Of a stretch of 64,000 bases of DNA, positions 5,599-63,492 are shown in pieces (positions within the stretch are counted from its first letter, which is position 1; each line of letters begins with the position of its first letter). The stretch spans positions 169,373-233,372 of the forward strand of contig CAYZXT010000001.1 in NCBI GenBank assembly GCA_964482515.1, in the 5' to 3' direction. The notes beneath the pieces were generated by a model. That model saw only the letters and a list, made by a program, of their open reading frames with translations, was not told the origin of the DNA and ran no database searches. Position numbers and translations under genes: made by a program. The stretch is from an uncultured Elusimicrobia bacterium (GTDB taxonomy: Bacteria > Elusimicrobiota > Elusimicrobia > FEN-1173).

Positions 5599-5606
5599 GG
5601 TTGGCC

Positions 5607-6062: not shown

Positions 6063-6068
6063 TCTCCT

Positions 6069-7024: not shown

Positions 7025-7053
7025 ATGATAGCAAAAATGCCCGACGGCGACAA
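7025..7053 (-). promoter_or_regulatory. Candidate sigma70-type promoter for the rpsF-ssb-rpsR-rplI operon
   Basis: On the minus strand, TTGTCG-17nt-TATCAT lies about 80 nt upstream of the rpsF start. Identified by eye only. Confidence 0.25.
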
Positions 7054-7134
7054 TTGTTTATTCAGCGGAAGCCATCGTACGGCAGATCACAAACTGGTAG
7101 GATGTTTTCATAAATGAAGTGAAAGGACCCCTTT

Positions 7135-7641: not shown

Positions 7642-7721
7642 ACGCTGTTGGATTCTAGTTGGCACTTTCCAAACCCTCCGCAAAACTGTTAACATGGTGC
7701 TCTGATTTTCAGTCGTAGAAT

Positions 7722-7820
7722 CTTGCCGCACTCGCGTCAGCGCCGCGAGTACAGGCAGGCGGGGCCAGATATCTAATACTTGCCGCACTTTTCGCAGGGC
7801 GAAAAGTACAGGCAGGCGGG
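7722..7820 (+). repeat. Tandem pair of ~43-nt units (period 57 nt) in the tRNA-Thr leader, each being cttgccgcac-[hairpin]-gtacaggcaggcggg
   Basis: Unit A 7722..7764 has stem actcgcg/cgcgagt. Unit B 7779..7820 has stem acttttcg/cgaaaagt. Flanks are identical and the stems are fully different but both self-complementary. Confidence 0.6.
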
Positions 7821-7844
7821 CCCCAAGAGGGCCCGAATACCCCT

Positions 7845-7917
7845 GCCGGGGTAGCTCAGCTGGTAGAGCAGCCGCTTCGTAAGCGGCAGGTCGTCGGTTC
7901 GATCCCGATCCCCGGCT
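7845..7917 (+). tRNA. tRNA-Thr (anticodon CGU)
   Basis: 73 nt. Acceptor GCCGGGG/CCCCGGC, D-arm GCTC-AGCTGGTAG-GAGC, anticodon stem GCCGC/GCGGC with loop TTCGTAA (anticodon CGT), T-arm GTCGG-TTCGATC-CCGAT, discriminator T. CCA not encoded. Confidence 0.9.
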
Positions 7918-7950
7918 TATTTTTTCAGACGTGAAAACATTAATTGTCTC

Positions 7951-9408: not shown

Positions 9409-9435
9409 GCGGCTTTTTGGTTAGATAGTCTCGCG

Positions 9436-36389: not shown

Positions 36390-37609
36390 GCGGAGTTCAA
36401 TCCCTCCACTCTTTTCGACGGCTTGCCCTTGGCCTGACCGCGGCCTGCCTACCGATCTCCATCGCCGCTTCCAATGTCTGCGGCGCCCTGGCCCTCGCGG
36501 CCTGTGTGGTGCTCCTGTTCGCCGATCCGTCACGGCGGGAATATCGTTGGACCGGTTTGGAAATACCCTGGTTGATCTATCTTTCCGTTTGGTTCGCCGC
36601 GTCGGCTTTGTCGCCGTCCCCCGCCCGCAGCCTGTCGAAATTGTCGGCCTATGTCACCATTTTGTTTTTCCTGCTGGCCTCTCAAGGTCAGGACAAGGAC
36701 GATCTGACGCGGAACGTCAAAATTTTTTTGGCCGCCTGCGGCGTGGCGGGACTCTGGGGCGTGCTGCAGTACGTTTCGGGCGCGGACTGGAATCCGGGGA
36801 CCAACCAATTGTCCCTTCCCGATTGGATGACGTCGCTGCCGTCGAGCCTGGCCCAGGCGTTGGCCACGCGGAACGGGCGGTCCCTGGGATTTTTCAGCCA
36901 CCCTCTCACCTACGCCGAGGTTCTGCTCGTAGGCTGGACCTTGAGCCTCGCCCAGATTTTTCAGCTTCACCGCAAGGCCGGGCCCTTCTGGCTGTTCGTC
37001 TTCTTCGCCACATCGGGAGGTCTGCTGTGCAGCGAGAGCCGCGGCGTTTGGCTTTCGATGTTCGTTCTGCTCGCCGTCTGGGGCGTCGTCCGCCGGAAGA
37101 AACGTGTCCTCATGGCCCTGGGTCTGTTGGTCGCGGCGGGAGGACTCCTGGTCGCATTCAATCCGAAAGTGCAGCACCGTGTGCAGAGCCTCCGACATGT
37201 CGCCGTGGATCCCTCCAGCAACATCCGTTTGGGGTTGTGGCGTGCGGCCGGCCGGGCGTTCGCCGAGCGTCCGGTTTTGGGCGTCGGGATGGGGAACGTC
37301 CGACTGGTATCCGGCGCAGGGCCGGAGCCCAATAAGGTTTGGTCGGAGACGCACAATATCTTCCTTCAGGCGGGCGTAGAAGCGGGGATCGTCGGCCTGG
37401 CCGCATTCTGCGGATTTCTTTTCGCGGCGGCACGGCTCCTTTGGCGGGCGTCCTCTCCCGGATGGCGCGACGGCCTATTCTTCGCGTTCGTCGGGATATT
37501 GTTCGCGGGGTTGACCGAATCCTGGATGCGCGACGCGGAAGTCATGATCGTGATGAATTTTATTCTGGGGAGCGCCGCCCTCGCGATGCGGAGGAAACAG
37601 GATGCCTAA
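36386..37609 (+). CDS. waaL: O-antigen ligase family protein (WaaL-like, Wzy_C domain)
   Basis: GTG start overlapping upstream stop (GTGA). About 10 TM helices and a large periplasmic loop (...SFFSHPLTYAEVLLVGW...CSESRGVW...ETHNIFLQ). Embedded in the core-LPS cluster. Confidence 0.7.
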   Translation: MSGVQSLHSFRRLALGLTAACLPISIAASNVCGALALAACVVLLFADPSRREYRWTGLEIPWLIYLSVWFAASALSPSPARSLSKLSAYVTILFFLLASQGQDKDDLTRNVKIFLAACGVAGLWGVLQYVSGADWNPGTNQLSLPDWMTSLPSSLAQALATRNGRSLGFFSHPLTYAEVLLVGWTLSLAQIFQLHRKAGPFWLFVFFATSGGLLCSESRGVWLSMFVLLAVWGVVRRKKRVLMALGLLVAAGGLLVAFNPKVQHRVQSLRHVAVDPSSNIRLGLWRAAGRAFAERPVLGVGMGNVRLVSGAGPEPNKVWSETHNIFLQAGVEAGIVGLAAFCGFLFAAARLLWRASSPGWRDGLFFAFVGILFAGLTESWMRDAEVMIVMNFILGSAALAMRRKQDA

Positions 37610-38150
37610 GCGGCCCGCCGTTTTCCTCGACCGCGACGGCACGTTGATGAAGGACGCCGTCTACGCGGACCATCCGGACGACGTGGATGTTTACCGCCGG
37701 GCGCCGGCCGCGCTCAGGCTTTTGCAGAAGGCCGGCTTTGCCTTGGTCGTCGTCACCAATCAGTCCGGACTCGGGCGCGGCTACTTCACGTGGGCGCAGC
37801 TTCGGCGCGTGCACGGCCGGTTGGACCAACTGTTGCGACGCCGGGGCGTTCGACTCGATGGGTTTTTCATTTGCCCGCACCGGCCGTCCGACGGATGCAA
37901 ATGCCGCAAGCCCAAGGTCGATCTCGTGAAACAGGCGGCGCGGAAATTGAATCTGGACCTGAAGGGTTCCGTCATGGTGGGCGACCGGGTTTTGGATCTG
38001 GAAATGGCCCGGAAACTGAAAATTTCGGGCGTCCGGGTTAGGACCGGCCACGGCTGGTCGGAAAAGCCCCGGGTGACCGGCGATTACGCCGGACGCGACC
38101 TCATGGACGCGGCCCGCTGGATCCTGGCCAAAAGAAGGGGTTCGCTTTAA
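37602..38150 (+). CDS. gmhB: D-glycero-D-manno-heptose 1,7-bisphosphate phosphatase
   Basis: HAD motif I AVFLDRDGTL, zinc-binding CPHRPSDGCKCRKPK, VGD..D motif. Confidence 0.9.
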   Translation: MPKRPAVFLDRDGTLMKDAVYADHPDDVDVYRRAPAALRLLQKAGFALVVVTNQSGLGRGYFTWAQLRRVHGRLDQLLRRRGVRLDGFFICPHRPSDGCKCRKPKVDLVKQAARKLNLDLKGSVMVGDRVLDLEMARKLKISGVRVRTGHGWSEKPRVTGDYAGRDLMDAARWILAKRRGSL

Positions 38151-40372
38151 TGGTTCCGAAGAAACCGGTTTTGTCCCGCACAAGTCCCGCCGTTTACGCC
38201 TGGCATGGTTTCCTGCTCGCGGCCCTCGTCCTCGTGCAGGGCGTTTATCTCCTTTGGTGGCTGCGCAACGACACCCGTCCGCCGGCCTGGGACGAGTCAC
38301 ACCATCTCCTGATCGCCGAGAATTACAGCCGCGCCATCGAGGACCGGAACTGGGAAGCCCTGGTCCGCCCCGTTTTTTCCAACTACCCGCCGCTCTATCA
38401 TCTCACCCTGTCTCCCTTCATGGATCGCTCGGAGGATGTGAACGCCGTCGTCAAGAAGGCCATCGGCGTCAACATCGGCTATCTGTGTTTGTTGATCGTG
38501 GCCGTCTATTTTCTGGGGGAAGCGCTTGTGTCGTCGGAGGCGGGGTTCTGCGCCGCGGCCATGGCGTCTTTCTCGCCGATCATGCTCTGGTTGGCGCACC
38601 GGCCCATGATCGACATGCCCTTGGCCGCCTGGGTGGCTCTGGCGTTGCTCTGCCTGGTGCAGTCCGATTATTTTGAGAAACCGTGGTGGAGCCTGGCTCT
38701 GGGACTTGCCTTCGGCGCGGGCATGATGACCAAGTGGTCCTTCATCGTTTACGCCGGCGTCCCCGTGGCCTGGGGATTCATCCGCGCTGTCATCGGCGGC
38801 CGGTGGCGGCCGATCCTCCTGTTCCTGCTCGGCGCCGTCGTCGTGGCGGGACCTTGGTACGCGTTCAACGGACTGCCTTCCGTCCTGAAAACGCAAAAAC
38901 TGGCGGCGATCAAGGAGGCGCGCGACCCGGCCCGCTGGAGTTTCGCGAGCGCCACCTGGTATCTGCGCGCCGCGGCCAACGACGGAATCATGTGGCCCAT
39001 GGCGCTGGCCGCCGTCGCCGGCATTGTGGCGGCCGTCCTCAGCGGGCGCTGGCTGCTTCTGACGTGGATGTTGGTTCCCCTGGTGTTTTTTAGCTCGGTG
39101 CAGAACAAGGACCTTCGCTATTACGTGCCGGCCCTGCCTTCCCTCGCTTTGATGATTGCGGCCGTGCCCGAGCGTTTTTCCGCCGGGTCGCGGCGGCTTT
39201 GGTTCATCGGCTGGACCGGCCTGGCTGTTTTCCTCGGCGTCGCCTACGGAACGGCGGACCGCTGGCCGGCCCCGCTTCAAAGGGCCGCGGCCTTCGCCGG
39301 GCTCGAACCTCTTTACAACATGCGACGCGCGCCGGGGAACCCTTCCGAGATGCACCACGACTATTCGTCGAAGGAAGACTGGAAGACCGACGAGATTTTA
39401 AAATTCATTCAAGACCGGTCCGTCGCAGGCAAACTCAGCCGGGTCAGCCTGATCAGCAACCATCCCTATTTCCAGACGTGGAACCTGCGTTTCGCGACGA
39501 AGGTCCGGGGGTGGAACGATATCGTCCTCTTCAACCCGAAACGCCGCTTGGGGGAATTCTCGGATTTCATCCTCTGGAAGACCGGGGACATGGGGCCGGA
39601 GTTCACGCTGGGTTACCTCGCGGACGCCGCCCGAATCCTGCAGGAACAGCCGCTCTGGCTGGAAAAAACCTTCACGCGCGTGATGCAATGGCCGCTGCCC
39701 GACGGCTCCCAGGCCGTCCTGTTCCAGCGCGACGTGAAAAGCGTGGCGTGGCCGTCGGCGCTGGGCGAAGTGGTTTTCGAGCTGAAACAATTCCCACTGC
39801 CCCGCTTCGAAGCAGAGGGGCTTCGCGTCCACCTCGTCCCCGCCTCCGCGGGCCAGGCGAAAAAGGGTGAATTCACTCGAATTGTTATAGAATGTGACCG
39901 CCTCGATTATCGCGGATTGGTTTTGGAAAGCGTCCGGATAGACGGCCGGGACGTCCAGATCAATTTACCGAGGCTGCTGGAAAATAGGGAGCTGCTCTTT
40001 CTCCGGGTGGGGGAACTCCGGCCGTCGGTCCAGATCGGCGGCGAGACCCTGGTCCGGTATCTTCAAGCGAGGGCCCGCTGGTTGCGCGACCCGCGGGTGG
40101 CGCTGGAAGACGGTCTTGTCCGCGTATCGGGGCGCGCGCATGGATTGCCTTTGAACGTGTCGGCCCGGGCGGAACTCTCCCCGACGCGCGACGCGGTGAC
40201 GCTGACCTTGGATTCGGCGCGGATCGGCCCGGTTCCGCTCCCGCTGTTTTTAATCCGCGCTTATACGTGCAAGACGTTTTCTCTGGATCCGTCAAAGGAT
40301 CTGCAGTTTCCAGTTCGCATGGACGAACTGACTATCAAAAATGGTCTGCTGACCGTGAGGAGTTCTTCGTGA
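38150..40372 (+). CDS. ArnT/PMT-like (GT39/GT83-type) polytopic glycosyltransferase fused to a ~350-aa C-terminal extracytoplasmic domain of unknown function
   Basis: N-terminal ~390 aa with about 10 TM helices and a first-loop acidic motif (WDESHH). C-terminal half is soluble with no recognised motifs. Confidence 0.55.
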   Translation: MVPKKPVLSRTSPAVYAWHGFLLAALVLVQGVYLLWWLRNDTRPPAWDESHHLLIAENYSRAIEDRNWEALVRPVFSNYPPLYHLTLSPFMDRSEDVNAVVKKAIGVNIGYLCLLIVAVYFLGEALVSSEAGFCAAAMASFSPIMLWLAHRPMIDMPLAAWVALALLCLVQSDYFEKPWWSLALGLAFGAGMMTKWSFIVYAGVPVAWGFIRAVIGGRWRPILLFLLGAVVVAGPWYAFNGLPSVLKTQKLAAIKEARDPARWSFASATWYLRAAANDGIMWPMALAAVAGIVAAVLSGRWLLLTWMLVPLVFFSSVQNKDLRYYVPALPSLALMIAAVPERFSAGSRRLWFIGWTGLAVFLGVAYGTADRWPAPLQRAAAFAGLEPLYNMRRAPGNPSEMHHDYSSKEDWKTDEILKFIQDRSVAGKLSRVSLISNHPYFQTWNLRFATKVRGWNDIVLFNPKRRLGEFSDFILWKTGDMGPEFTLGYLADAARILQEQPLWLEKTFTRVMQWPLPDGSQAVLFQRDVKSVAWPSALGEVVFELKQFPLPRFEAEGLRVHLVPASAGQAKKGEFTRIVIECDRLDYRGLVLESVRIDGRDVQINLPRLLENRELLFLRVGELRPSVQIGGETLVRYLQARARWLRDPRVALEDGLVRVSGRAHGLPLNVSARAELSPTRDAVTLTLDSARIGPVPLPLFLIRAYTCKTFSLDPSKDLQFPVRMDELTIKNGLLTVRSSS

Positions 40373-51012: not shown

Positions 51013-51041
51013 TTGACATAGGGGTTTCGTGGGACTACACT
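51013..51041 (+). promoter_or_regulatory. Sigma70-like promoter for the pilin-like three-gene island
   Basis: TTGACA-17 nt-TACACT located 42 nt upstream of ATG 51083, in a 175-nt AT-rich spacer after lptB. Confidence 0.45.
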
Positions 51042-51082: not shown

Positions 51083-52423
51083 ATGTCTAAAGCCGCTAAC
51101 TCAATGTTTTTGCGATTGCTCGCTCTCTTTAATCCGACCGGTCCGGGTCGGTCGAATTTATTCCGCCCTGTCGCCGCAGAGACCGGCTCCGTCGTCGTTC
51201 TCATTGTCATGCTCATCAGCCTCCTGGCTTTTATTCCCGTCGGGACTCAGTTGGTGAAGATGGCCCGCCAAAATATCGGGCTTCAGCTGCATTCCACCGT
51301 CCAAGCCGACAACGTGGCCCGCGCCGGCTTGACGGACGCCGTCGCCTGGTTCCGCCGCCAAACAACCCAACCTGTGCGGAATTTGGGAACCCCCTATCCG
51401 GACGCGGCATTCGCCCCGGTCGACAGTGGCGACCCCGACGACACCGACACGATAGATGCGGCCATCGGACTGGTGAAGGAATACGACTTGGGAGAATCGA
51501 ACAACCTCTGGGCGCGTTATGAAGTGCGGCGCCAGGCTGTGGACAACGTTGCCGATCCCTCGGCCAACGATCCGCACGCCGTGCACGACATCACGCTCCT
51601 GCGCTTGCAAGGGTCGACCGATACATTGAACGGCGGGGGGCTGGCCTGGTATATCGAAAGCGTGGGGTATGTTTATCGCCGAAGGGACCCGTCCGTGGCT
51701 TACAACGTCGCTCCCAACGAGATCGTCGGCCGGTCGCGCGTGGCCACGGAAATCCGGCGCGTCGCCTTGAACCGCGCGGAAGCCAACGCCGCGGTGGTGA
51801 TCACCAGCCGCGGCAGCGGCACCATCAATACCAATTGCCGGGTCGTGGGGGGCAGCACCGCCTACGGCGTCGCCTATTGCGGCGGCTCCGGCGGGACATG
51901 GGGGAACTCATCCACGCCTGTGCGCACGTCGGGAACCACGGCGTGGAATTACAGCATCACGTCGGGCGCCTTCAATACGAGCTTGGACATTCAGTCTCTC
52001 TTCGGCGTGACCCCCTATGAGCTGAAGCTCATGGCGGACTACAGCGTGTCCACCGTTGCCCAATTGCCGAGCGATTATCCATCGGCGTCCTTGGTTTTCA
52101 TCGACGGTCCGGCGACGTTCGACGACCCTCGTCCCTTAAGGGGCGGCGGGATTCTCTTCGTCAACGGCAACCTCACTCTCTCCGGCTTGAGCACCAACAC
52201 CCATATTTTCAGCGGGCTGATCTATGTCAACGGCAACTGCACCATCACCGGGCCCGCCACGATCTCGGGAACGCTCTGGGTGACGGGCAGCCTCACGATG
52301 AGTGGCGGCAGCGACGTCGCGGAAGTCCTTTTTGACGGCGATATCCTGACCGCCGTCCAACAGCAGGTGGGCCAGTACCGCGAGAACAAGTCCGCCTATC
52401 ACGTTTTCTCGGCGCAAAAATGA
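51083..52423 (+). CDS. PilX/GspK-like pilus-associated protein (N-terminal hydrophobic PilX_N-like segment, C-terminal parallel-beta-repeat region)
   Basis: Start moved to ATG 51083 because ORF-track ATG 51029 lies inside the predicted promoter. N-terminus GSVVVLIVMLISLLAFIPVGTQLVKMARQNIGLQLHSTVQADNVARAGLTDAVAWFRR parallels the PilX/GspK N-terminal architecture, with no G/FxxxE cleavage motif. C-terminal repeats GGGILFVNGNLTLSG / GLIYVNGNCTITG / GTLWVTGSLTMSGG. Confidence 0.6.
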   Translation: MSKAANSMFLRLLALFNPTGPGRSNLFRPVAAETGSVVVLIVMLISLLAFIPVGTQLVKMARQNIGLQLHSTVQADNVARAGLTDAVAWFRRQTTQPVRNLGTPYPDAAFAPVDSGDPDDTDTIDAAIGLVKEYDLGESNNLWARYEVRRQAVDNVADPSANDPHAVHDITLLRLQGSTDTLNGGGLAWYIESVGYVYRRRDPSVAYNVAPNEIVGRSRVATEIRRVALNRAEANAAVVITSRGSGTINTNCRVVGGSTAYGVAYCGGSGGTWGNSSTPVRTSGTTAWNYSITSGAFNTSLDIQSLFGVTPYELKLMADYSVSTVAQLPSDYPSASLVFIDGPATFDDPRPLRGGGILFVNGNLTLSGLSTNTHIFSGLIYVNGNCTITGPATISGTLWVTGSLTMSGGSDVAEVLFDGDILTAVQQQVGQYRENKSAYHVFSAQK

Positions 52424-55400
52424 AAAATAAACGTCCCGCTCATCTCGGCGAAAAAGGGTTCACCCTGGTGGAGGTCGTCATCGCCATGGTCGTCCTAAGC
52501 GTTGTGGCATTGGGCAGCATGAAGGCTTTCTGGTTCATCAGCCAGCAAAACGTGATCGTGAACAAGCGGTCTTTCGCGGCTCAAAAAGCCGTTCAGATGA
52601 TCGAGGAACTCAGGGGCCTCATCGCGGACGCGGACACGGAGATCGGGGTCCTCGATAACTACGACAACGGCAGCGGCTATAAATACACCTTGTCGACCCG
52701 TTCGGAAGTGAATGCGAACCTCTCCACGGTCGACCCCGGCGATCTGCCGGGCGATCCCATCAGCGGAAACAGCGGATTGAAATTCAAGCGCCAAGTCCGC
52801 GTGCTGCAGATGCCGAACGAAGAGTTGGCCCGGCGGGTCTATGTGCGCGTTTACGATAGCGGGAACAACGAAGTCCTCGCCGAGACCGTCAGCGTGTTGC
52901 GCAGCGTCCGAAACCAGTTCTATCCCACCCAGGAGTACGATGTCTATGTCCTCAGCCTGGAAAACGTTCCGGGGTGGTGGAGCGCCTTGTCCACCCTTCA
53001 GCCCACGTTCGACAGCATGGTGGAGGACCTGAAGGTCCGCAATCCGGGGCTTAACCTGAGGGTCCATTACATCACCCGATTGGCCTACGGGCGCGACCCG
53101 TTTTACATGCCGTACACCAACGACGCCACGCGCGCGGACAACGTCGCGTCACCCTGGGTTTATTTCTATCCGGGCAACGTGGATCGACCCAGTGTCGGGG
53201 ATTTTTATTATTACGTGCCTGACGGGTTCCAGGGGCGGATCAACATAGACGGCACAGTCGTCAACCCGAATTCGTACAGCATCGCCGATCAATACAACCA
53301 GGCGGTGCGCTATCCGGATGAGGAGTCCCTCTATGCTGCGGCGGTGGCTTCGGCCGCGGCCACCGGCACGACGGCGCCTGAAATCAGTTTGCGCATGCTG
53401 TGGGAGCGCATGATCACAAGCTCGGACACCTATCGCAACCTGTTCGTGGTGAACCTGCACGGAGAGCTGCTGCCTTTGCCGCCCATGCGCAACTATTCGG
53501 ACGCGGCGAAGGCGCCGATGGTTTCCACATACACCAACGTCCGCGCTGTGACCCACCCCGAAAGGTTGCAGTATGCCTCCGGCAGCCAGGTGAACCTGCG
53601 CGTGTACACGTACGTGATGGATCCTACCAATGCGGCATGGACGGATACTTCTTCCACTACACTGAACATCCTGATCAGCACGCCGCTCATTTCGGGCAAC
53701 GTCACCGTCCGGAAAGTCACCGGCAATTCCGGCGCAAATTACGCATGGGGAGCCGCCTCGGCCGGCACCGATTATGTCTTTTCAAATCCGACGCCTGCCA
53801 CCACCCTCATCACTCTTTTCAACAGTCCTCTCAGACATGCCGAGGCCGGCAACGGGACAGGTCTTCGCTCAACGCACCGTTTGCACGGCCTGGAATATAT
53901 TCCAAGTCCGCTGGCCGGTAGCGGGGCTTCCTTCGCGGAAGGAGACAAGGACCTGGCGGATCCGGACGACGACGATGATCCCCATAACACCGCCCGCTGG
54001 GTGATCCAAATCGCCGCCGGCGCTTTGAGCAATGGGATGCATACCTTTGAAACCCGCCTGGGCGACGATTACACCACGGGCACTTCCACCAACCAGCCTA
54101 CGAATATTTCCCGCACCTATACGTGGGTGGGAACCACGGCGCCCGCGACGGAAAAATATCAGTTCATGGGCGATCCCCGCCATATGCCCTATGTCGATGT
54201 CAAGGCTGAGCTGGGATACAATTGGTACTTCAACAATGCCACCTTCGTGTCTGGCGATTACCCGGGCTATACCAACGTCCAGAACCGTTGGAACGGGACG
54301 GCGAACGTGGACATCCCGCGCTACATGCAGGCCCTGCGCACCGGGCTCATGAACGCAGAAGGGATTTGGACCAGCATGACGGGTTTTTCCAATTACTATG
54401 TGGGGCTGGGCGGCGAGATCGGTTATGACGCCTCCAACGGGTTCTCCAACAGCATCGATATCGTGGGAACGCCTTGGAACAACGCGGGCACCATCGGCGT
54501 CCAGGAAATCACCAGCGGGGCCGGTTCTTCCTCCGAGAACTATTCCCGGATCATTTCCAGCGATAACAACAACTGGTGGGGACTTTACTGGCTGGGCGAA
54601 CTCTACCCGGACAGCGCCTACTCCCTTTGGAGTTCCAGCGGGAACCTTCCCGTGGGCACTAACCAATATTACCGGCGACGCTTCAACGGAGTGACCGGAT
54701 TCGCCGCAAGCGAAGTCCAGAAGCGCCTCTCCGAGAGAGGCTCCTCGTCTTTCTTCAACGGGAACCCGTCCGGGAACGACAGTTCCTGGTTCAACCACCA
54801 GTACCGGGACGGCAACGGCGCGACCCTGACCGTCATCGGATCGACGGTGGCCGCGGACTTCAACTTTCCGCTTTTAAGCAGCATGAACGCCGACCGGCCT
54901 TTTCTGTTGAACATGACCGACACGAGCCGCCGGCCGGACGAGTGGAACCTGGCGCCCTACAACGTGACGTCCGGAGCGTCGCGGCAGCGGACCACGCTCA
55001 GCACCTTCGAAACGTGGTACGAAACGACCGGATATACATCGACGGAAGATTCCAGCGCTTTGCTCAGGTTCCACCTGGGAGCTGGCACGCGCGTGGGCAA
55101 CGTGGTCATGAACGGCCTTTCGCCCACCGGCAGTTTCGGCAACTCCCAGATCGCCAAACTTTGTTTAACCAACCAGCTTCGGGCCTTCATGACCCTCGGC
55201 AGCCCCGCCGCGACCCAGGGGGCCATCGCGCAAGTGCCGTTGGTGTCCATCACTTCGCCGACCGTGTCCAGCGAGCTTCCTCTCACTGTTACGAGCATCA
55301 ACGTAACCTGGTCCACCGCCTGGACGCGTTGGGACGGCGCCCCTTACACGAGCGCTTATGCGGGGTATGCGTCGCCGCCCGGCATGGGGTATAATGTGAA

Positions 55401-55617
55401 ATATTCGGTCGACAACGGCCAAACCTGGAGGTTCGTCAACACGGGGCTTTCGGCGACAGCCGGCGTTTACTCCGCCGCGAATGCGGTCACTAGCCCGGTC
55501 ACCTGGGACGTGTCGGCCTTCGGCGCCGGGACCTATATACTACGCGTAGAAGGCTATCGAAACAACTTGCCCATGCATTATTCCCACCATCAAAGAAGGG
55601 TGTACATCCGGCGTTAG
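52420..55617 (+). CDS. Giant (1065 aa) prepilin-type protein: class III signal + N-methylation motif followed by ~1000-aa extracellular region with an Asp-box (BNR) motif
   Basis: ATGA overlap with the upstream gene. Leader MKNKRPAHLGEK-G/FTLVEVVIAMVVLSVVALG (Gly-1, Glu+5). Very Asn/Ser/Thr/Gly/Tyr/Trp-rich body. Asp-box SVDNGQTW near the C-terminus. Confidence 0.75.
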   Translation: MKNKRPAHLGEKGFTLVEVVIAMVVLSVVALGSMKAFWFISQQNVIVNKRSFAAQKAVQMIEELRGLIADADTEIGVLDNYDNGSGYKYTLSTRSEVNANLSTVDPGDLPGDPISGNSGLKFKRQVRVLQMPNEELARRVYVRVYDSGNNEVLAETVSVLRSVRNQFYPTQEYDVYVLSLENVPGWWSALSTLQPTFDSMVEDLKVRNPGLNLRVHYITRLAYGRDPFYMPYTNDATRADNVASPWVYFYPGNVDRPSVGDFYYYVPDGFQGRINIDGTVVNPNSYSIADQYNQAVRYPDEESLYAAAVASAAATGTTAPEISLRMLWERMITSSDTYRNLFVVNLHGELLPLPPMRNYSDAAKAPMVSTYTNVRAVTHPERLQYASGSQVNLRVYTYVMDPTNAAWTDTSSTTLNILISTPLISGNVTVRKVTGNSGANYAWGAASAGTDYVFSNPTPATTLITLFNSPLRHAEAGNGTGLRSTHRLHGLEYIPSPLAGSGASFAEGDKDLADPDDDDDPHNTARWVIQIAAGALSNGMHTFETRLGDDYTTGTSTNQPTNISRTYTWVGTTAPATEKYQFMGDPRHMPYVDVKAELGYNWYFNNATFVSGDYPGYTNVQNRWNGTANVDIPRYMQALRTGLMNAEGIWTSMTGFSNYYVGLGGEIGYDASNGFSNSIDIVGTPWNNAGTIGVQEITSGAGSSSENYSRIISSDNNNWWGLYWLGELYPDSAYSLWSSSGNLPVGTNQYYRRRFNGVTGFAASEVQKRLSERGSSSFFNGNPSGNDSSWFNHQYRDGNGATLTVIGSTVAADFNFPLLSSMNADRPFLLNMTDTSRRPDEWNLAPYNVTSGASRQRTTLSTFETWYETTGYTSTEDSSALLRFHLGAGTRVGNVVMNGLSPTGSFGNSQIAKLCLTNQLRAFMTLGSPAATQGAIAQVPLVSITSPTVSSELPLTVTSINVTWSTAWTRWDGAPYTSAYAGYASPPGMGYNVKYSVDNGQTWRFVNTGLSATAGVYSAANAVTSPVTWDVSAFGAGTYILRVEGYRNNLPMHYSHHQRRVYIRR

Positions 55618-55626: not shown

Positions 55627-56697
55627 ATGTCGACTTTCCGGATTTTCTTAAAAAAAACATTCAAATCCATTACGCGGATTGCCGGCGGCGAGCGGGGAAT
55701 CACCTTCGTGGAAGTTCTAATCACGGGCGCGCTGGTCGCCGTCCTGGTTTTGTCCGTTGTGCCGCTCTTCAATGTCACCAGCCGGGGTTTCACCAGTTTG
55801 GAGGTCAATACCGTGCTTTCCTCGGGATCGCAGGCGGCGCTGAACAAAATACAGCACCGGCTCGTGGAAAGCAAGCGGATATTCGGCAACACCGCCAGCG
55901 ACAACGCCTTCCTGGCCAAAGTGACGTTCAGCGGCGCTCCCTCCGTTTTGTCGGGCAGCAAGTTGCCGGTAATTGTTTCTACGGCATCCATTTCACCGAG
56001 CAGCGCGACGTTCAACGCTGCCAACGTGGGGAACAGCCTTTTTTTCGCGAGCTTGGACTCCACGGCGGATTTCGACGACATCGCCGTGTCCGGCGGTACG
56101 CAGGGAATCCGGATCGATACCTATGTCTTCAATTATTACTACCTCAGCCCTGATTCGTCCCAAACCATCGGCGGAAGCGCCGTGAGGCGATTGTGGGAAT
56201 GGCACAGCGTCCGCTACGCTGACTACATACAGATCGTGAATATCACCGACACGACGAAACGCACAAACACCATCACAGCCCTTAAAAATTCCGGGATAGA
56301 TTATGCGTGGTGTTCTTCGGCCACCGTTGCGACATCCGCTTTCTACACTTTAACCGCCGGCAACGCGAACCCCGGAGCCAGTTCGGGTCATTCGATCCCC
56401 AAAGCCTCCGGCAGTAATTCCCAGAAAAATATGCTTCAGTTGGTCCGCGGCGTCACCACGGGCGGCTTCCGTTATTCCGTATCGCCCAACACCAGCGGGA
56501 GTTTCAACCCGAAACATACCGTGCCGGTATACGGCATGGCGTCGGGGAATTTTCCTTCGGGGTTTGAGGTGCTGGTCGTGGGCCCCAGCGGTACCCGGCA
56601 GGTGTTCATGCGCCTTGTGCTGGCAGCCCAGGGTAGTTTCAAAGGATTCCTGTCAAACGATCAGACGGTGCTGGTGACGACGAGGGATGTGTGGTGA
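55627..56697 (+). CDS. Pilin/pseudopilin-like protein (356 aa) with long leader
   Basis: ...ITRIAGGERG/ITFVEVLITGALVAVLVLSVV (Gly-1, Glu+5) after a 24-aa leader. Ser/Thr/Gly/Asn-rich beta-type C-terminal domain. Confidence 0.65.
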   Translation: MSTFRIFLKKTFKSITRIAGGERGITFVEVLITGALVAVLVLSVVPLFNVTSRGFTSLEVNTVLSSGSQAALNKIQHRLVESKRIFGNTASDNAFLAKVTFSGAPSVLSGSKLPVIVSTASISPSSATFNAANVGNSLFFASLDSTADFDDIAVSGGTQGIRIDTYVFNYYYLSPDSSQTIGGSAVRRLWEWHSVRYADYIQIVNITDTTKRTNTITALKNSGIDYAWCSSATVATSAFYTLTAGNANPGASSGHSIPKASGSNSQKNMLQLVRGVTTGGFRYSVSPNTSGSFNPKHTVPVYGMASGNFPSGFEVLVVGPSGTRQVFMRLVLAAQGSFKGFLSNDQTVLVTTRDVW

Positions 56698-57422
56698 GCC
56701 AAATCACCTACGGAACGGCCTTCGCGGCGGGCATCATTTCATTCCTCTCCCCATGCGTTTTGCCCCTTGTGCCGGGATACATTTCCTTCATCTCGGGACT
56801 CTCGCTTGATGAGTTGACGAAAACCCAGGATCGCGCGGCTGTGAACCGGAGGACGGCCGTGGGCTCCATCGCTTTCACGCTTGGATTCGCTTCGGTGTTC
56901 ACGGCGCTGGGCGCTTCCGCGTCGGTGGTGGGCCAATGGTTGTTCGACTATCAGGCCGTCCTGAGCAAGATTGCCGGCGCGATCATTTTCTTCTTCGGGC
57001 TGCACACCATGGGCGTCCTTCCGATAAAGTGGCTTTATTATGAAAAGCGGTTCCAGGCGAACAAGACGGCGCCGGGCGCCGTGGGCGCTTTCGTGATGGG
57101 ACTGGCCTTTGCTTTCGGTTGGACGCCCTGCATCGGCCCCATCCTCGCCGGTATCCTGGCGCTAGCCGCGACGCAAGACACGGTGGCTCAAGGAACGATG
57201 CTGCTCTTCGTGTATTCCATGGGATTGGGGATCCCTTTCATCCTGACCGGTTTTGGTGTCAACACGTTCCTCCGCTTCTTCGCGCGCTACAAGCGGTTCA
57301 TCCGCTGGGGGGAGATCGCGGCCGGGTTTCTGCTGGTGGCCATCGGCGTCCTGATTTTCTTCAACCGCCTCACCGTGCTCATCAATTACCTGCCCGACTC
57401 CTTCATGCGCTTCGCCCGCTGA
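56691..57422 (+). CDS. ccdA: Cytochrome c-type biogenesis / thiol:disulfide interchange membrane protein CcdA (DsbD beta-domain family)
   Basis: Two conserved Cys in TM1 and TM4 (FLSPCVLPLVPGY...; GWTPCIGPILAGIL). 6 TM. Confidence 0.85.
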   Translation: MVSQITYGTAFAAGIISFLSPCVLPLVPGYISFISGLSLDELTKTQDRAAVNRRTAVGSIAFTLGFASVFTALGASASVVGQWLFDYQAVLSKIAGAIIFFFGLHTMGVLPIKWLYYEKRFQANKTAPGAVGAFVMGLAFAFGWTPCIGPILAGILALAATQDTVAQGTMLLFVYSMGLGIPFILTGFGVNTFLRFFARYKRFIRWGEIAAGFLLVAIGVLIFFNRLTVLINYLPDSFMRFAR

Positions 57423-57497
57423 CCGTTCCGCCGCTTTACCCGCCTTTCTTTCCTTACTAAAATAGTTTTCATCCCTTTCCCGCGAGGCTGCTCGACC

Positions 57498-59699
57498 ATG
57501 TCATCCGTAAAACCCAACGCGCTCATCCACGAAAAAAGTCCCTACCTCCTTCAGCACGCCCATAACCCGGTGGATTGGATGCCCTGGGGCGACGCTGCCT
57601 TCGCGCGCGCGCGGAGCGAAAGCAAACCTATCTTCCTTTCGATCGGCTATTCCACCTGCCACTGGTGCCACGTGATGGAACGGGAATCTTTTGCCAACGC
57701 CGACATCGCCGCGCTCATGAACAGAAACTTTGTCTGCATCAAAGTGGACCGGGAGGAGCGGCCCGACGTGGACAAGATCTATATGACCGCGGTGCAGGCC
57801 ATCACCGGCCAAGGGGGATGGCCTTTGAACGCGTGGCTGACGCCCGGCCTGAAACCGTTCTACGGCGGGACCTACTTCCCGCCCGAATCGCGTTGGGGCC
57901 GTCCGGGTTTTCCGGAGATATTGGAACGCATCGCGGAGATGTGGACGGCCGAACGGGAGAAGCTGGAGGATTCCGGCCGGCAGATCCAGGAATTGCTGGC
58001 GCAATCGCTGGGCGGGCGGGATTTGAGCGGCGCCCTGGACCCGAAGGCGCTGGATTCCGCGTTCAAATATTTTTCCATGGCCTTCGACGAAAAATGGGGC
58101 GGGTTCCGGGAAGCGCCCAAATTCCCCATGCCGGTCTACCATAATTTTCTTTTGCGGTATTATGCCTCAACCAAAAAACAGGAAGCGTTGGATATGTCCC
58201 TGGAAACCCTGCGCGCCATCGCCGCGGGCGGGATCTACGATCAAATCGGCGGCGGGTTCCACCGCTATTCCACGGACGAGCGCTGGCACGTCCCGCATTT
58301 CGAGAAGATGCTTTATGACAACGCGCAGCTGGCGGTCAATTATATCGAGGCGTTCCAGATTTCGGGGGACGAGAATTTCGCCCGCGTCGCGCGCGAGACC
58401 CTGGATTACGTCTTGCGCGACATGTCCCACCCGGACGGGGGGCTTTATTCCGCCGAAGACGCCGACAGCCTGCCGCCGGAACTGGTCGGCCAGGTGGAAG
58501 ACAAGGGGCATGAGCACCGCGCCGCCCTCTCCGCAGAGCTCCGAGGACAGGCCGCGGTCCAGAGGACCGACGACTCGGCCGAAGGCGCGTTCTATATTTG
58601 GAAATACAGCGAGCTGATGCAGCTCCTGGGTCCGGTGAACGGCGAGATCTTTTGCCTCCATTACGGCGCATCGCCCAACGGCAACGCGGAGTCCGATCCA
58701 CAGGGGGAGTTCGAGAACAAAAACATCCTGTTCTTCGCCCATAACGTTGACGCGGTCGCCGCCCGATTCAAGAAATCCCCAGAGGAGGTCCGCCGCATCC
58801 TCGATGATTCGCGGCGGAAGGTTTTCATGTCGCGCGAGAGGCGGCCCCGCCCGCAACGCGACGATAAAATCCTGGCTTCCTGGAACGGCCTCGCGCTGTC
58901 GGCCTTCGCCAAGGCCGCGCAGGTTTTCGACGACGCGAAATACCGGGAGGCGGCGCAGCGGATCGCGCGGTTCCTGAAGACCCATTTATACGACGCGAAG
59001 GATGGAAGGTTGTATCGGCGCTGGCGCGACGGCGCACGCGGAATCCCCGGCACGGCGGACGATCACGCGTTCCTCGCGCAGGGGCTTTTGGATCTCTATG
59101 AGGCGGACTTCGACGCGGGCTGGCTGGCCTGGGCGGAAACGCTAACGCAGAAGCAAAACGATCTTTTCCTAGACAGGGAGCGCGGCGGGTTCTACATGAC
59201 CGCGTCCGATCACGACGGGAATATTTCCCTGCGCAGCAAAGAGGACATGGACAACGTGGAGCCGTCGGCGGCGTCGGTGGCGGCGTTGAACCTCCTGCGG
59301 CTGGCGGAACTGACGGACCGCGATGACTTTCGAAAGATCGCGGAGCAGACGTTGATCTCCTTCGGTTCGGCCATGGGGGAACAGCCCCAGGCGCTGCCTC
59401 AGATGCTTGTTGCCTTGGATTATTATTTCGCCAAGCCGCGGCAAATCGTCGTCGCGGGCGAGCGCGACGGCACCGATACGCGAGCTCTTCTGCGCGAAGT
59501 CCATCAGAGATTCCTCCCTCATAAAATCGTGTTCCTGCTCGACGGCTCAGGTGCGGAACGCGAACTCCTGGATCGCCTGCCCTATTTGAAGGACATGGCT
59601 CCCGTGGGCGGCAAAGCGTCGGCCTACGTCTGCGTGGACCGTGCCTGCGCGCTGCCGGTGAACGAACCCGGCAAGCTGGCGGAAATCCTGGCCCGTTAG
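57498..59699 (+). CDS. Thioredoxin-domain protein YyaL (DUF255 + six-hairpin glycosidase-like domain)
   Basis: [52 protein letters not shown] is a highly conserved YyaL/DUF255 N-terminus. Confidence 0.9.
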
Positions 59700-59828: not shown

Positions 59829-61061
59829 ATGAAACGATCCAAAGTGTTGGGCCTCATCATGGCGGGCGGTAAGGGCGAACGGCTCGTCCCTCTCACGCGC
59901 GAACGCGGCAAGCCGGCCGTTCCCTTCGGCGGAAAATACAGGATCGTGGATTTCGTTCTGAGCAATTTCGTCAACTCCGGAATATTCTCCGTCTACGTCC
60001 TCGTCCAGTACCTCTCACAGTCGCTGATCGACTACCTCCGCACCAGCTGGCGCAATCGCGGCATCATCAACGACCACTTCATCACCGTGGTGCCGCCCCA
60101 GATGCGCATGGGGGAGATGTGGTATCGCGGCACGGCGGACGCCGTTTCGCAGAACCTGAACCTGATACGGGATTTTGATCCGGACCTCGTGGCCGTTTTC
60201 GGCGCGGACCACATCTACCGCATGGACATCGGCCAGATGCTGGCGTTCCACGTGGAGAAGGGCGCGGAAGTGACGGTGGCCTCCCTGCCCGTGCCCATCG
60301 AGAGGGCCCGCGGCTTCGGCATCATCAAGGTGAATAAATCCGGCCGCGTGATCAGGTTCGAGGAGAAACCGAAAAACCCGGATCCCATGCCGGGAAACCC
60401 GCAGATGGCTTTTTCCTCCACGGGGAATTACATCTTCAACCGGGACCTTCTGGAAGAAGTGCTGATGGAGGACGTGAAAAAAGATTCCGCCCATGATTTC
60501 GGCAAAACGATCATCCCATCCATCATCAAACGCGCCAAGGTCTACGCCTACAACTTCACGGCCGCCGACATTCCGGGGATGAAACCCTACGAGGAACGCG
60601 GTTACTGGCGGGACGTCGGCGACCTGGAATCCTACTGGTCCGCCCACATGGACCTGCTGGGCGAGAAGCCGAAGCTGGACCTGAACAACGACGAATGGCC
60701 CATTTACGCGGGCCGCTTCGATGGGCCGTCGGCCCACATCCTGGGCGGCGAGGTCGCGGACAGCATGATCGGCACCGGCTGCGTGGTCCACAACGCGGTC
60801 GTCCGCCATTCCGTCCTGGGGCGGGGCGTCATCATCCATCCCGGCGCGCTGGTGGAAGACAGCATCATCATGGATTTTTCGGAGATCATGCCCGGCTGCC
60901 GGTTCCGCCGCGTCGTATCGGACCGCTTCAATATGTTCGGCCCCGACACCGAGATCGGCTATGATGCTGAAAAAGACAGGGCCGCCGGCTATCACGTGGA
61001 CAAATCCGGCATCGTGGCCATCGGCCGCGGCCGCAGCAAATGGGCTCATCTTAAGCGGTAG
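59829..61061 (+). CDS. glgC: Glucose-1-phosphate adenylyltransferase
   Basis: LGLIMAGGKGERLVPLTRERGKPAVPFGGKYRIVDFVLSNFVNSGI, ...GTADAV...; left-handed beta-helix C-terminus. Confidence 0.93.
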   Translation: MKRSKVLGLIMAGGKGERLVPLTRERGKPAVPFGGKYRIVDFVLSNFVNSGIFSVYVLVQYLSQSLIDYLRTSWRNRGIINDHFITVVPPQMRMGEMWYRGTADAVSQNLNLIRDFDPDLVAVFGADHIYRMDIGQMLAFHVEKGAEVTVASLPVPIERARGFGIIKVNKSGRVIRFEEKPKNPDPMPGNPQMAFSSTGNYIFNRDLLEEVLMEDVKKDSAHDFGKTIIPSIIKRAKVYAYNFTAADIPGMKPYEERGYWRDVGDLESYWSAHMDLLGEKPKLDLNNDEWPIYAGRFDGPSAHILGGEVADSMIGTGCVVHNAVVRHSVLGRGVIIHPGALVEDSIIMDFSEIMPGCRFRRVVSDRFNMFGPDTEIGYDAEKDRAAGYHVDKSGIVAIGRGRSKWAHLKR

Positions 61062-61068
61062 ATGTTGA

Positions 61069-63492
61069 ATGTCGAACGACAAACGTTTCATTTGCATTCA
61101 CGGCCATTTCTATCAGCCTCCCCGCGAGGATCCCTGGCTTGAAGCTATTGAAGTCCAGGATTCCGCCTATCCCGCCCACGACTGGAACGAGCGCGTCCAC
61201 ATGGAGTGTTACGCGCCGAACACCGCCTCCCGCATACTCGACGGCCAGGGCCGCATCGCCGAGATAGTCGAAAACTATTCCAAGATAAGCTTCAACTTCG
61301 GCCCCACCCTCCTTTCCTGGATGGCGGCCTATGATCCCGAGACCTACGGGCGCATCCTCGAGTCCGATAAAAAAAGCCGCGACGCGCGCGGCGGGCACGG
61401 CAACGCCGTGGCCCAGGTCTATAACCACGTCATCATGCCGCTGGCCACCGACCGCGACAAGGTCACCCAGGTCGTCTGGGGGATCCGGGACTTCCAGAAG
61501 CGTTTCGGCCGAATGCCCGAGGGCATGTGGCTGTCGGAAACCGCGGTGGACAGCCAGACGCTTGAGATTTTGGCGGAGATGGGGATTAAATACACCATCC
61601 TCTCGCCGCAACAGGCCGGCGCCATCCGGTCGATCGAGGACCCGCTGGCGCCCTGGCAGGACGTGTCCGGCGGGCGGATCGATCCCAGCCGGCCCTACCG
61701 ATGGGTGTCCGACAGCGGGCTGAGCCTGGACATATTCTTCTACGACGGACCCATCTCCCAAGCCATCGCTTTCCAGGGGTTGCTGAACAACGGCGAGTAT
61801 TTCGCGGGCCGGCTGACGCACGGTTTTTCCGATGACCGGAAGCGCTCCCAGCTCGTGCACGTCGCCACCGACGGCGAGAGTTACGGGCACCACCATCGTT
61901 TCGGCGACATGGCTTTGGCCTACGCCTTGCGGAAGATCGAGAAGGAAGGTTCGCCTCGCCTCACCAACTACGGCGAGTACCTGGAGAAGAACCCGCCGGA
62001 CTGGGAAGTCCACATCGTCGAGCGATCCTCCTGGAGCTGCTTGCACGGGATCGAACGCTGGCGCTCGGACTGCGGCTGCCGCATCGGCGCCCAGGCGAAC
62101 TGGAACCAGTCCTGGCGCGGGCCCCTGCGCGAATCGCTCAATTGGCTGCGCGACCGCCTCGACGCTATCTTCGCGTCCAAGGGCGCGGCGTATTTCCGCG
62201 ATCCCTGGCAGGCGCGCAACAACTATATCGACGTGATGTTCGACCGGAGCGACGAATCGGTCAAAAACTTTTTCGCGCACAACCAGTCGCGGGAGCTCGG
62301 CCCGGCGGAACAGGCTGAGGCGTTGAAGCTTTTGGAAATGCAGCGCCACGGACAGTTCATGTTCACCAGCTGCGGCTGGTTCTTCGACGAGCTGTCCGGC
62401 ATCGAAGGCGTGACCGTGCTCCGCTTCGCGGGCCGCGCGCTCCAGCTCGCCGAGCAATTTTCCGAAAAGCCTCTGGAGGCCGACTTCCTGTCCCATCTGG
62501 CCAAGGCCAAAAGCAACATCCCCGAGTTCGGCGACGGGCGGCGCGTCTTCCAGCGTTTCGTGAAGCCCGCCATGACGGACCTCGCCCGCGTGGCGGCTCA
62601 CGTGGCCATGGCGGGCCTCATCGACGACGGCCCCGATGAGGGAAGGGTCTACTGCTATGCCTATAAACATCTCGACCGGAGGAAAGCCGCGCGTCCCGGC
62701 TCGGCGCTTTCCACGGGCCGGTTGCGGATCGTTTCCGACATCACGCGCGAGGCCCTGGAGCGGGATTATCTGTCTCTGCACCTGGGCGGACATGATTTCC
62801 GCGCCGGGCTCAGGCCGGCGGAAGGCGCGGCCGCGCCTTCGTCGGATCACCTCCTTCAGAAATTCCAGGACGGTTCCTTGGACGATCTTGCCGCCGCCCT
62901 GGAAAAAGACTACGGCCCGCGGATTTACTCCCTGCAGGACATGTTGTTGGAAACGCGCCGGGACGTCCTCGGCCGCATCATCCGCCAAATGGTGGGCCGC
63001 TACGACGGACCCTATCGCCAGCTGGTCGACGAAAACATCAAGCTGATCAATTACCTGCGGGACACGAATTTCCCGATCCCGGCCGCGTTCCGCCTGGCGC
63101 TGCAGTACGTTTTGAACCGGGATTTCGAGGACGGCGTCGCGCGCTTCGACGGCCGACCAGAGTCCATCGAGAGGCTGTCCGCGGTGCGCGCCGACGCGCG
63201 GAAGTTCGGCATCGACCTGGACGAGAACATGGCCGCGGACATGGTCCGGCGGCAGGTCAGCCGTCTCATGGGCGAGCTTTCCAAGGATTTGGATTTGGCC
63301 GTCGCCCAGCAGATCCTCGCCTACCTTGAATTGGCTTCCCGGCTCGAGTTGAACCTTTTCCTTTGGCACGCCGAAAACCTTTTCTACCGCTTATGGCACG
63401 AGCGCCTGCGGAATTCTCCCGTCATGAACAACGGGTCGGGGGAAATCTTTCGCCGTCTGGCGCAGCGGTTCCGGCAGGTCGTGCCGGTTTAA
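61069..63492 (+). CDS. Glycoside hydrolase family 57 enzyme (alpha-glucan branching/4-alpha-glucanotransferase type) with C-terminal DUF3536-like region
   Basis: FICIHGHFYQPPREDPW (GH57 HxHQP motif), ...GMWLSETAV..., GESYGHHH. Confidence 0.85.
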   Translation: MSNDKRFICIHGHFYQPPREDPWLEAIEVQDSAYPAHDWNERVHMECYAPNTASRILDGQGRIAEIVENYSKISFNFGPTLLSWMAAYDPETYGRILESDKKSRDARGGHGNAVAQVYNHVIMPLATDRDKVTQVVWGIRDFQKRFGRMPEGMWLSETAVDSQTLEILAEMGIKYTILSPQQAGAIRSIEDPLAPWQDVSGGRIDPSRPYRWVSDSGLSLDIFFYDGPISQAIAFQGLLNNGEYFAGRLTHGFSDDRKRSQLVHVATDGESYGHHHRFGDMALAYALRKIEKEGSPRLTNYGEYLEKNPPDWEVHIVERSSWSCLHGIERWRSDCGCRIGAQANWNQSWRGPLRESLNWLRDRLDAIFASKGAAYFRDPWQARNNYIDVMFDRSDESVKNFFAHNQSRELGPAEQAEALKLLEMQRHGQFMFTSCGWFFDELSGIEGVTVLRFAGRALQLAEQFSEKPLEADFLSHLAKAKSNIPEFGDGRRVFQRFVKPAMTDLARVAAHVAMAGLIDDGPDEGRVYCYAYKHLDRRKAARPGSALSTGRLRIVSDITREALERDYLSLHLGGHDFRAGLRPAEGAAAPSSDHLLQKFQDGSLDDLAAALEKDYGPRIYSLQDMLLETRRDVLGRIIRQMVGRYDGPYRQLVDENIKLINYLRDTNFPIPAAFRLALQYVLNRDFEDGVARFDGRPESIERLSAVRADARKFGIDLDENMAADMVRRQVSRLMGELSKDLDLAVAQQILAYLELASRLELNLFLWHAENLFYRLWHERLRNSPVMNNGSGEIFRRLAQRFRQVVPV

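Follow-up and report, generated by a model that had tools for sequence, protein, structure and literature searches.

A cassette of three co-directed genes encoding type IV pilin-like proteins was found in a stretch of 64,000 nucleotides (nt) of contig CAYZXT010000001.1 (assembly GCA_964482515.1) from an uncultured Elusimicrobia bacterium. This whole stretch is hereafter called the window (Table 1). The middle gene encodes a giant modular minor pilin of the GspI/PilV class. It lies between the gene for a K-type minor pilin and the gene for a further pilin bearing glutamate at position +5 of the mature chain (Glu5). The cassette is preceded by kdsD-kdsC-lptC-lptA-lptB and a 175-bp spacer, in which a putative promoter was recognised by consensus match alone. 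The stop codon of gene 1 and the start codon of the giant gene overlap (ATGA), and gene 3 starts 10 nt past the giant stop codon, leaving a 9-nt gap. The overlap, the short gap and the separate promoter-like site are signs of an operon.

The giant protein begins with MKNKRPAHLGEKG followed by FTLVEVVIAMVVLSVVALG, that is, with a class III signal peptide having Gly at -1 and Glu at +5. The PF07963 (N_methyl) model matched this region with 27.9 bits (E 1.6e-6; Pfam cut-off 21.2), and TIGR02532 gave 24.8 bits (cut-off 16.3). In the first-pass annotation, made from the sequence without database searches, an open reading frame (ORF) of 1065 amino acids (aa) with a prepilin N-terminus had been described; the ORF is exact, and both models agree with its reading. 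Gly13 and Glu18 are kept in at least 90% of the homologs, and Glu5 occurs in 53 of the 53 giant-family homologs with a detectable motif, the median leader being 9 aa. Judging from the sequence, the leader would be removed after Gly13 by a prepilin peptidase, to give a mature N-terminal peptide FTLVEVVIAMVVLSVVALGSMK with a predicted N-methyl-Phe1. Of the window ORFs that were scanned, none was recognised as encoding a prepilin peptidase. The mature protein has a calculated mass of 115.5 kDa and an isoelectric point of 5.5. Its composition (S 9.3%, T 8.8%, G 8.5%, N 7.5%, Y 5.8%, W 2.3%, one Cys) agrees with the Asn/Ser/Thr/aromatic-rich body noted earlier. The number of Cys residues in giant-family homologs reaches 15, against one in the window protein. 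The protein had also been regarded as far bigger than known pilins, and the largest modular pilin in the InterPro survey of 2021 indeed has 860 aa (PMC8179133).

Based on the AlphaFold2 (AF2) model, the protein is predicted to comprise a GspI-like pilin module, a multidomain body and a C-terminal beta-sandwich. The predicted pilin module has a long N-terminal helix (alpha1) lying on an antiparallel sheet, as expected for the pilin fold. It superposes on GspI and is structurally equivalent to the GspI globular domain. Together with the class III signal, this supports the first-pass view that the protein is of the pilin type. The model includes FN3/Ig-like sandwiches within the body and is confident across the junction between the pilin module and the body. 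Structure prediction was also run on database homologs.

For residues 34-1065, no Pfam or NCBIfam match was found at E <= 0.01, and scanning the body in pieces against both databases at E <= 10 revealed no further family for the remaining ~1030 residues. In Pfam, Reelin subrepeat B and the chitobiase C-terminal domain appeared as weak neighbours. Against PDB sequences, the body had no significant match in either sequence or profile searches; the profile recovered only the pilin helix (E 0.03) and, at E ~0.3, the sialidase Asp-box. Foldseek against the PDB returned only partial Ig-like matches for the body, with query TM-scores of 0.11 or less. Searches for PilY1, CofB and TcpB, which had been proposed earlier, gave no match among the listed hits, and the homologous beta-repeat and beta-sandwich domains of CofB/TcpB were not found in the giant protein. 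A PilY1-like or CofB/TcpB-like body was therefore rejected, as neither sequence nor structure searches produced matches.

The motif SVDNGQTW, reported in the first-pass annotation as an Asp-box, is present near the C-terminus and forms one canonical S-x-D-x-G-x-T-W hairpin. It is the only strict Asp-box in the protein (0.0086 expected from composition), and about 41 of the 62 aligned homologs have it at the corresponding position, so it is a genuine motif rather than a chance match. It had been described as the glycosidase/sialidase BNR motif. However, sialidases have several Asp-boxes, a six-bladed propeller, a FRIP motif and catalytic residues, none of which accompany the single hairpin here. 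Copley, Russell and Ponting reportedly noted in 2001 that single Asp-boxes are also found in beta-sandwich folds that are unrelated. A sialidase/BNR propeller was rejected, since a single Asp-box is present, Pfam BNR scored 12-13 bits against a cut-off of 27, and neither a six-bladed propeller nor a FRIP/catalytic arginine motif was found.

The homolog alignment contains 58 invariant columns, many of them polar, concentrated in residues 200-400 and 575-600; most of these residues fall inside the body. It is conceivable that the body is a hydrolase or another enzyme, displayed by a filament or by a membrane anchor. Such a function, which we consider improbable, would fit the abundance of invariant polar residues and a weak similarity to domains occurring in glycosidases. 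Longer homologs have three insertion hot spots, after residues ~400-425, 506-521 and 606-625. The recognised insertions are PA14 in P0038 and Laminin_G_3/ConA-like lectin (PF13385) in P0029, neither of which occurs in the window protein. The homologs P0038, P0029, P0140, P0199 and P0212 reach 1400-1660 aa through insertions at the three fixed sites, and the insertions of 400-580 aa in P0140, P0199 and P0212 gave no Pfam match. The first-pass proposal of a pilin-anchored adhesin or glycan-binding/hydrolase module thus stands in part: an adhesin is still the best functional guess, and the sialidase is unsupported.

To find relatives, a word-indexed search over 5.8 billion proteins and an exhaustive hidden Markov model (HMM) search over 1.84 billion cluster representatives were conducted. 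The former gave at least 298 matches to the giant protein, the best 120 of which are nearly all 1000-1300 aa long, with 35-89% identity and 99-100% coverage. The latter gave 435 clusters (50% identity) at E <= 1e-30 and 614 at E <= 1e-10, with lengths to ~1660 aa. Most of the listed matches whose best stretch covers the N-terminus begin between profile positions 2 and 6, which suggests that the pilin N-terminus is constant in the family. In a set with a single genome for each GTDB species, relatives are encoded at 295 loci. According to the record titles, the carriers belong to Elusimicrobia/Elusimicrobiota, Acidobacteriota/Thermoanaerobaculia, Planctomycetota and candidate division FCPU426, with single metagenome-assembled genomes (MAGs) labelled Eisenbacteria and others. 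'Acidobacteria bacterium Mor1' (CP011806) is among the carriers on the Acidobacteriota/Thermoanaerobaculia side; CP011806 and OY970284 are examples of complete genomes with the cassette. The closest relatives in the GTDB-species set come from Elusimicrobia/Elusimicrobiota (up to 57% identity). Database names are generic: 'prepilin-type N-terminal cleavage/methylation domain-containing protein', 'PulG' or 'PilV family'. In the part of the literature on Elusimicrobia pilins or giant pilins that was covered, no description of the family was found.

These data also bear on the possibility that the fusion of a small pilin gene with an ORF downstream of it arose from a frameshift or as a chimera of the assembly. 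The absence of homologs with the same fusion would have spoken for such an artefact. Instead, full-length colinear homologs occur in hundreds of independent assemblies, which come from several phyla. An NCBI contig of 235,621 bp contains a called gene for the identical 1065-aa product. A relative with 89% identity (P0001) was found in Logan read-run assemblies, and Logan contigs from two runs have the same arrangement of lptB, upstream pilin gene and giant gene. AF2 confidence across the junction points the same way. Based on the conservation across independent assemblies and phyla, the fusion is genuine; the chance of an artefact is negligible.

After a conserved Gly35, the gene 1 product continues with a hydrophobic helix that lacks Glu+5. 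A pilin sheet comes next, then a beta-solenoid graft (predicted at residues ~236-416) and finally a conserved C-terminal strand. It was assigned to the K type because Glu+5 is absent and the predicted fold is GspK-like: it has an inserted domain, and its sheet is completed by the terminal strand. Its best structural matches are ComZ and tapirins. In the gene 3 family, G24 and E29 (Gly-1 and Glu+5) are invariant in 50 homologs, and the family profile matches type IV pilin N-termini from the PDB at E ~1e-6. PF07963 was matched by 44 of the 50 members; the window copy, with G at -1 followed by ITFVE, is off-consensus. The window copies of genes 1 and 3 have no Pfam or NCBIfam match of their own. 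The NCBIfam matches of the gene 3 family are mixed (H, ComGE, ComGF, PilV and J), and in hhalign comparisons with the small pseudopilins of the window only the N-terminal helices align, H and J being indistinguishable. The third pilin probably plays the J role, a role assigned by elimination.

The proteins encoded next to distant giant homologs are 40-47% (upstream) and 36-41% (downstream) identical to those of the window. Based on tblastn, the order upstream-giant-downstream is kept in essentially every locus with enough flank (~70 of 78 loci). There is no fourth conserved gene: after clustering of the flanking ORFs, no other family occurred in more than about 12 of 79 loci. The surroundings vary, from lipopolysaccharide (LPS) export genes in the window to Wzy/GT/MatE genes (L001) or GroEL/DnaE genes (L003). 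Two or three cassettes per assembly were found under the contig prefixes MGVS01 (L018, L023, L026), DMMW01 (L014, L021), PMLF01 (L011, L057) and CALKVK01 (L048, L052). Tandem duplicates are present in L020 and in L003 (positions 3682-14239), where the products have 430, 1099, 411, 1072 and 338 aa and the first copy lacks its own third pilin. Since the cassettes are duplicated or multi-copy in several MAGs, interchangeable tip sets are suggested. As far as the published account of Myxococcus goes, its alternative minor-pilin/PilY1 sets likewise occur in multiple copies (PMC8833165). The middle place of the giant gene in a conserved three-pilin cassette, the GspI/PilV class of its pilin module and the multi-phylum spread were not recognised in the first-pass annotation.

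Weak matches of the N-terminal type linked the downstream family to the NCBIfam 'Verru_Chthon cassette' models C and D (8 and 2 members) and the upstream family to model B (one member). The giant family did not match these models, and no literature on such a link was found. The models presumably describe another multi-gene prepilin-like cassette, in Verrucomicrobia, and the two cassettes may be distant analogues.

Table 1. Features of the three-pilin cassette and of other regions of the window (positions in nt; position 1 is the first letter of the window)
Feature	Position	Strand	Remarks
Sigma-70-like promoter match, putative	51013-51041	+	TTGACA-17-TACACT, 10/12; consensus match alone; in the lptB-cassette spacer
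Cassette gene 1, K-type (GspK/PilX/ComZ-like) minor pilin	51083-52423	+	446 aa
Cassette gene 2, giant GspI/PilV-class modular minor pilin	52420-55617	+	1065 aa; ATG start
Class III leader peptide, MKNKRPAHLGEKG	52420-52458	+	Residues 1-13; predicted cleavage after Gly13; N_methyl match at residues 11-33
Pilin module	52459-52959	+	Residues 14 to ~180; alpha1 helix 16-70, four-stranded sheet 122-178 (predicted model)
Body	52960-55239	+	Residues ~181-940; multidomain alpha/beta and beta-sandwich; no family assignment
C-terminal beta-sandwich domain	55240-55614	+	Residues ~941-1065
Asp-box SVDNGQTW, single	55405-55428	+	Residues 996-1003; hairpin between strands 989-996 and 1003-1005
Cassette gene 3, Glu5-bearing pilin	55627-56697	+	356 aa; GGERG, then ITFVEV after the cleavage site; J-type by elimination only
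GspF/PilC-like platform protein, C-terminus	1-456	+	
GspG-like major pseudopilin	453-923	+	
Three small Glu5 pseudopilins	889-1392, 1373-1690, 1687-2265	+	167, 105 and 192 aa
GspK-like protein without Glu5	~2267-3130	+	Sub-threshold HHH_3 (24.2 vs 27 bits)
PilM/PilN fusion	3127-4542	+	
PilO/GspM-like protein	4523-5050	+	
L9-like, S18-like, SSB-like and S6-like ORFs	5143-6945	-	Identified by eye from translations
485-aa ORF	7951-9408	+	No Pfam match
Two adjacent Wzy_C (O-antigen-ligase-like) proteins	9436-12207, 12141-14639	+	923 and 832 aa; C-terminal TPR arrays
LPS/Kdo/lipid A array	~26300-50900	+	Co-directional; lptB at the end
Third Wzy_C protein	36386-37609		In the LPS cluster
PMT_2+LmeA fusion	38150-40372		In the LPS array
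DsbD-type transmembrane reductase; DUF255 thioredoxin/GlcNAc-2-epimerase-like protein	56691-59699	+	DUF255 protein 733 aa
Glucose-1-phosphate adenylyltransferase-like gene; GH57 + DUF3536 protein	59829-63492	+	NTP_transferase + LbH_GLGC

The core tip/initiation complex of the type II secretion system (T2SS) and of type IVa pili (T4aP) consists of GspI-GspJ-GspK or PilV-PilW-PilX, also named PilI-J-K (PMC12918778, PMC9934059, PMC7541494), and a missing Glu5 is an invariable mark of its apical K subunit (PMC12918778). As a K-type pilin without Glu5, an I-type pilin and a further Glu5 pilin are always found together here, we propose that the cassette encodes an alternative tip complex. That the giant protein is the I-type (GspI/PilV-class) subunit of such a three-pilin tip/initiation complex of a type IV filament seems to us rather likely.

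For processing, trimer formation, tip location, the assembling machine and the ligand, we infer the following pathway. The three products, namely the K-type pilin with its ComZ-like beta-solenoid, the giant I-type pilin and the third, probably J-type pilin, would be inserted into the inner membrane, and their leaders would be cut by a prepilin peptidase. Their N-terminal helices would then associate into a GspI-J-K-like trimer, as is suggested by the conserved linkage of the genes. The trimer would prime the polymerisation of a major (pseudo)pilin; the machine responsible would be encoded elsewhere, the T2SS-like operon at the start of the window being a candidate. Because filaments grow from the base, the trimer would be carried to the distal tip, where the I subunit, with its ~880-residue body, and the K subunit, with its beta-solenoid, may together form a large head. 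The most likely job of this head would be binding a surface or a polymer ligand, i.e., adhesion. This role is proposed by analogy with PilY1, Streptococcus sanguinis PilB/PilC, tapirins and ComZ; the FN3/Ig modules, the PA14/lectin insertions in homologs and the multiple copies in several genomes are consistent with it.

Among known systems, GspIJK/PilVWX (PDB 3CI0, 5BW0, 5VTM) shares with the cassette three co-encoded pilins, a bulky K subunit without Glu5, a GspI-like fold and conserved N-terminal helices. Like GspK, the K-type protein of the window ends in a conserved C-terminal strand after an inserted domain. In contrast, the I subunit is ~10 times larger than GspI (1065 aa vs ~100-140), the gene order is K-I-J, an H-type pilin and linkage to machinery are absent, and the cut-offs of the GspI, PilV and GspK models are not reached. 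In the ComZ-PilA2 competence pilus tip of Thermus thermophilus (PDB 6QVI; PMC6561018), ComZ carries an ice-binding-protein-like solenoid within its GspK-like pilin domain, just ahead of the final strand. ComZ binds PilA2, the GspI-like pilin next to it, and was argued to cap the pilus. However, PilA2 is small, with a small subdomain, whereas the partner here has ~880 additional residues. Moreover, no sequence homology to ComZ was detectable, and no evidence here indicates DNA binding.

In the modular pilins of S. sanguinis (PilB with vWA, PilC with a lectin; PMC8179133, PMC9934059), a C-terminal graft follows an N-terminal pilin module, a tip location was predicted from bulk, and a three-pilin tip complex includes a GspI-like partner. 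The giant protein likewise has a pilin module (residues ~1-180) and ~880 further residues, which contain no database-defined extra module, and the lectin-type PF13385 module of PilC occurs in some giant-family homologs. The S. sanguinis GspI-like pilin PilA is small, non-modular and without Glu5, whereas here the GspI-like subunit is itself the modular giant. In addition, the giant family occurs in diderm environmental phyla, and because its body has no database signature, it was invisible to the InterPro survey. PilC/PilY1 proteins (and MshQ of MSHA pili) resemble it in their length (~1000-1500 aa), their presumed place atop a minor-pilin complex, their variable adhesin-type insertions and the multiple paralogous sets per genome. 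However, PilY1 is a Sec-exported non-pilin whose C-terminal beta-propeller docks to PilK by strand complementation. The giant protein has a class III pilin N-terminus, no PilY1 match and no propeller, and its large part would belong covalently to the I subunit. Unlike in every characterised case, the large module sits on the I subunit; in Thermus it is carried by the K-like ComZ and in T4aP by the non-pilin PilY1.

Several points weigh against a tip complex. The I-J-K order was described as almost invariably syntenic (PMC12918778), whereas here the order is K-I-J, and no H-type pilin is present. The giant protein scored 17.1 with TIGR01707 (gspI, cut-off 44.35) and 19.5 with TIGR02523 (PilV, cut-off 52.2; distant homologs at most 33.1). 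A secretin would have to pass a bulky cargo, namely a folded 115-kDa subunit together with a solenoid pilin of 45 kDa. The invariant polar residues at 200-400 and 575-600 could form an active site, not a binding or assembly surface. The machine of the window has a GspG-type major pseudopilin, and in a classical T2SS such a pseudopilin is not surface exposed. Homologs of the window machinery lie within 8 kb of the cassette in only 1 of 78 loci (GspF-like, L073). Finally, the interaction of the three proteins and their presence in a filament are predictions.

The lack of linkage in the other 77 of the 78 loci would also be expected if the class III N-termini merely served as inner-membrane anchors or processing signals, the trio forming an unpolymerised complex in the periplasm or at the surface. 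The place of the cassette between LPS-export and disulfide-reductase genes fits this explanation, and prepilin-like N-termini are abundant in the carrier phyla, which also counts for it. However, Glu5 is strict in two subunits and strictly absent from the K-type one, as would be expected for ordered helical packing at a filament tip, and complete GspI- and GspK-like pilin folds are retained. Besides, T4aP minor-pilin sets are commonly unlinked to machinery and present in multiple loci (PMC6668835). We give a filament-independent role of this kind only a small chance.

The T2SS-like operon lies 47 kb from the cassette, on the same strand, and a total of six Glu5 prepilin ORFs were found in the window. 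With this operon, the genome encodes a filament machine together with a small minor-pilin set belonging to it; the orphan giant set comes in addition. It is the only filament machine visible in the window, and it is T2SS-like (GspG-type pseudopilin, GspL/M-like PilMN fusion, PilO). The trio could thus prime a short periplasmic endopilus of the T2SS type, with the giant body acting inside the periplasm or the secretin vestibule in substrate docking or secretin gating. The resemblance of the pilin modules to T2SS GspI and GspK, the capping of the T2SS pseudopilus by GspIJK (PDB 3CI0; PMC6561018, PMC9934059) and the bulk of the head, which speaks against easy passage through a secretin, all agree with such an endopilus. 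On the other hand, the operon has its own small H-I-J-K set, and the PA14/lectin insertions in homologs, together with the FN3/Ig modules, are typical of surface adhesins. ComZ and tapirins, to which the K subunit is structurally closest, are surface or tip proteins, and proteins of the size of PilY1 are displayed at pilus tips (PMC7541494, PMC12918778). We regard the endopilus as unlikely, and a surface-exposed tip complex remains our preferred reading.

The array upstream of the cassette includes waaA-like, lpxK and lpxL-like genes, several GT4s, GT9, a PMT_2+LmeA fusion, DUF3108, kdsB, pyrG, kdsA, kdsD, kdsC, lptC, an lptA-like gene and lptB, after which the pilin cassette begins. In many Proteobacteria, rpoN (sigma-54) follows lptB; no match to it was found in the scanned ORFs immediately downstream of lptB. 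On the 3′ side, the DsbD-type gene shares its first 7 nt with the third pilin gene, and the DsbD/DUF255 neighbourhood is not conserved in other loci. The pair of large Wzy_C/TPR proteins is encoded a few kb from the pseudopilin operon. Pilin glycosylation is conceivable, as Wzy_C enzymes include pilin O-oligosaccharyltransferases and the Ser/Thr content of the giant pilin is very high. The 485-aa ORF between the ribosomal-protein cluster and the Wzy_C/TPR genes has a signal-peptide-like start, and its remainder appears beta-rich by eye. The only clear minus-strand genes seen are those of the ribosomal-protein cluster, in which the S18-like ORF has a long Pro/Gly-rich N-terminal extension. The adenylyltransferase-like gene and the GH57 gene at the end of the window are a glycogen-metabolism pair unrelated to the cassette.

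How type IV filaments gain functions and how they build and license their tips is an active question (PMC12918778, PMC9934059). The finding is of low relevance to sialidases and relevant to the field of type IV filaments. In the solutions known so far, a large effector is carried by PilY1/PilC, by a K-type pilin (ComZ, CpaL/TadG) or by small modular pilins. We tentatively suggest that the cassette represents an undescribed multi-phylum class of tip complex, with an adhesin-sized head covalently on the I subunit instead of on a separate PilY1/PilC protein or on the K subunit, a ComZ-like solenoid K subunit, the K-I-J gene order and no linkage to the machine. In Elusimicrobiota, Thermoanaerobaculia and Planctomycetota, it may take over the function of PilY1. 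The ~880-residue body possibly represents a new multidomain architecture and, given the invariant polar residues, possibly a new enzyme or receptor.

The giant family occurs in at least 295 species-level genomes from poorly studied, mostly uncultured phyla, and signature-based surveys of modular pilins miss the largest members, whose bodies have no domain model. With its three genes in ~5.6 kb, the family is a defined target for studies of the surfaces or polymers to which its carriers attach, and it allows one to ask whether a tip complex can accommodate a very large I subunit. If the proposed reading is true, a nucleating I subunit in the form of a multidomain protein of 115 kDa (up to ~180 kDa) would be a further solution.

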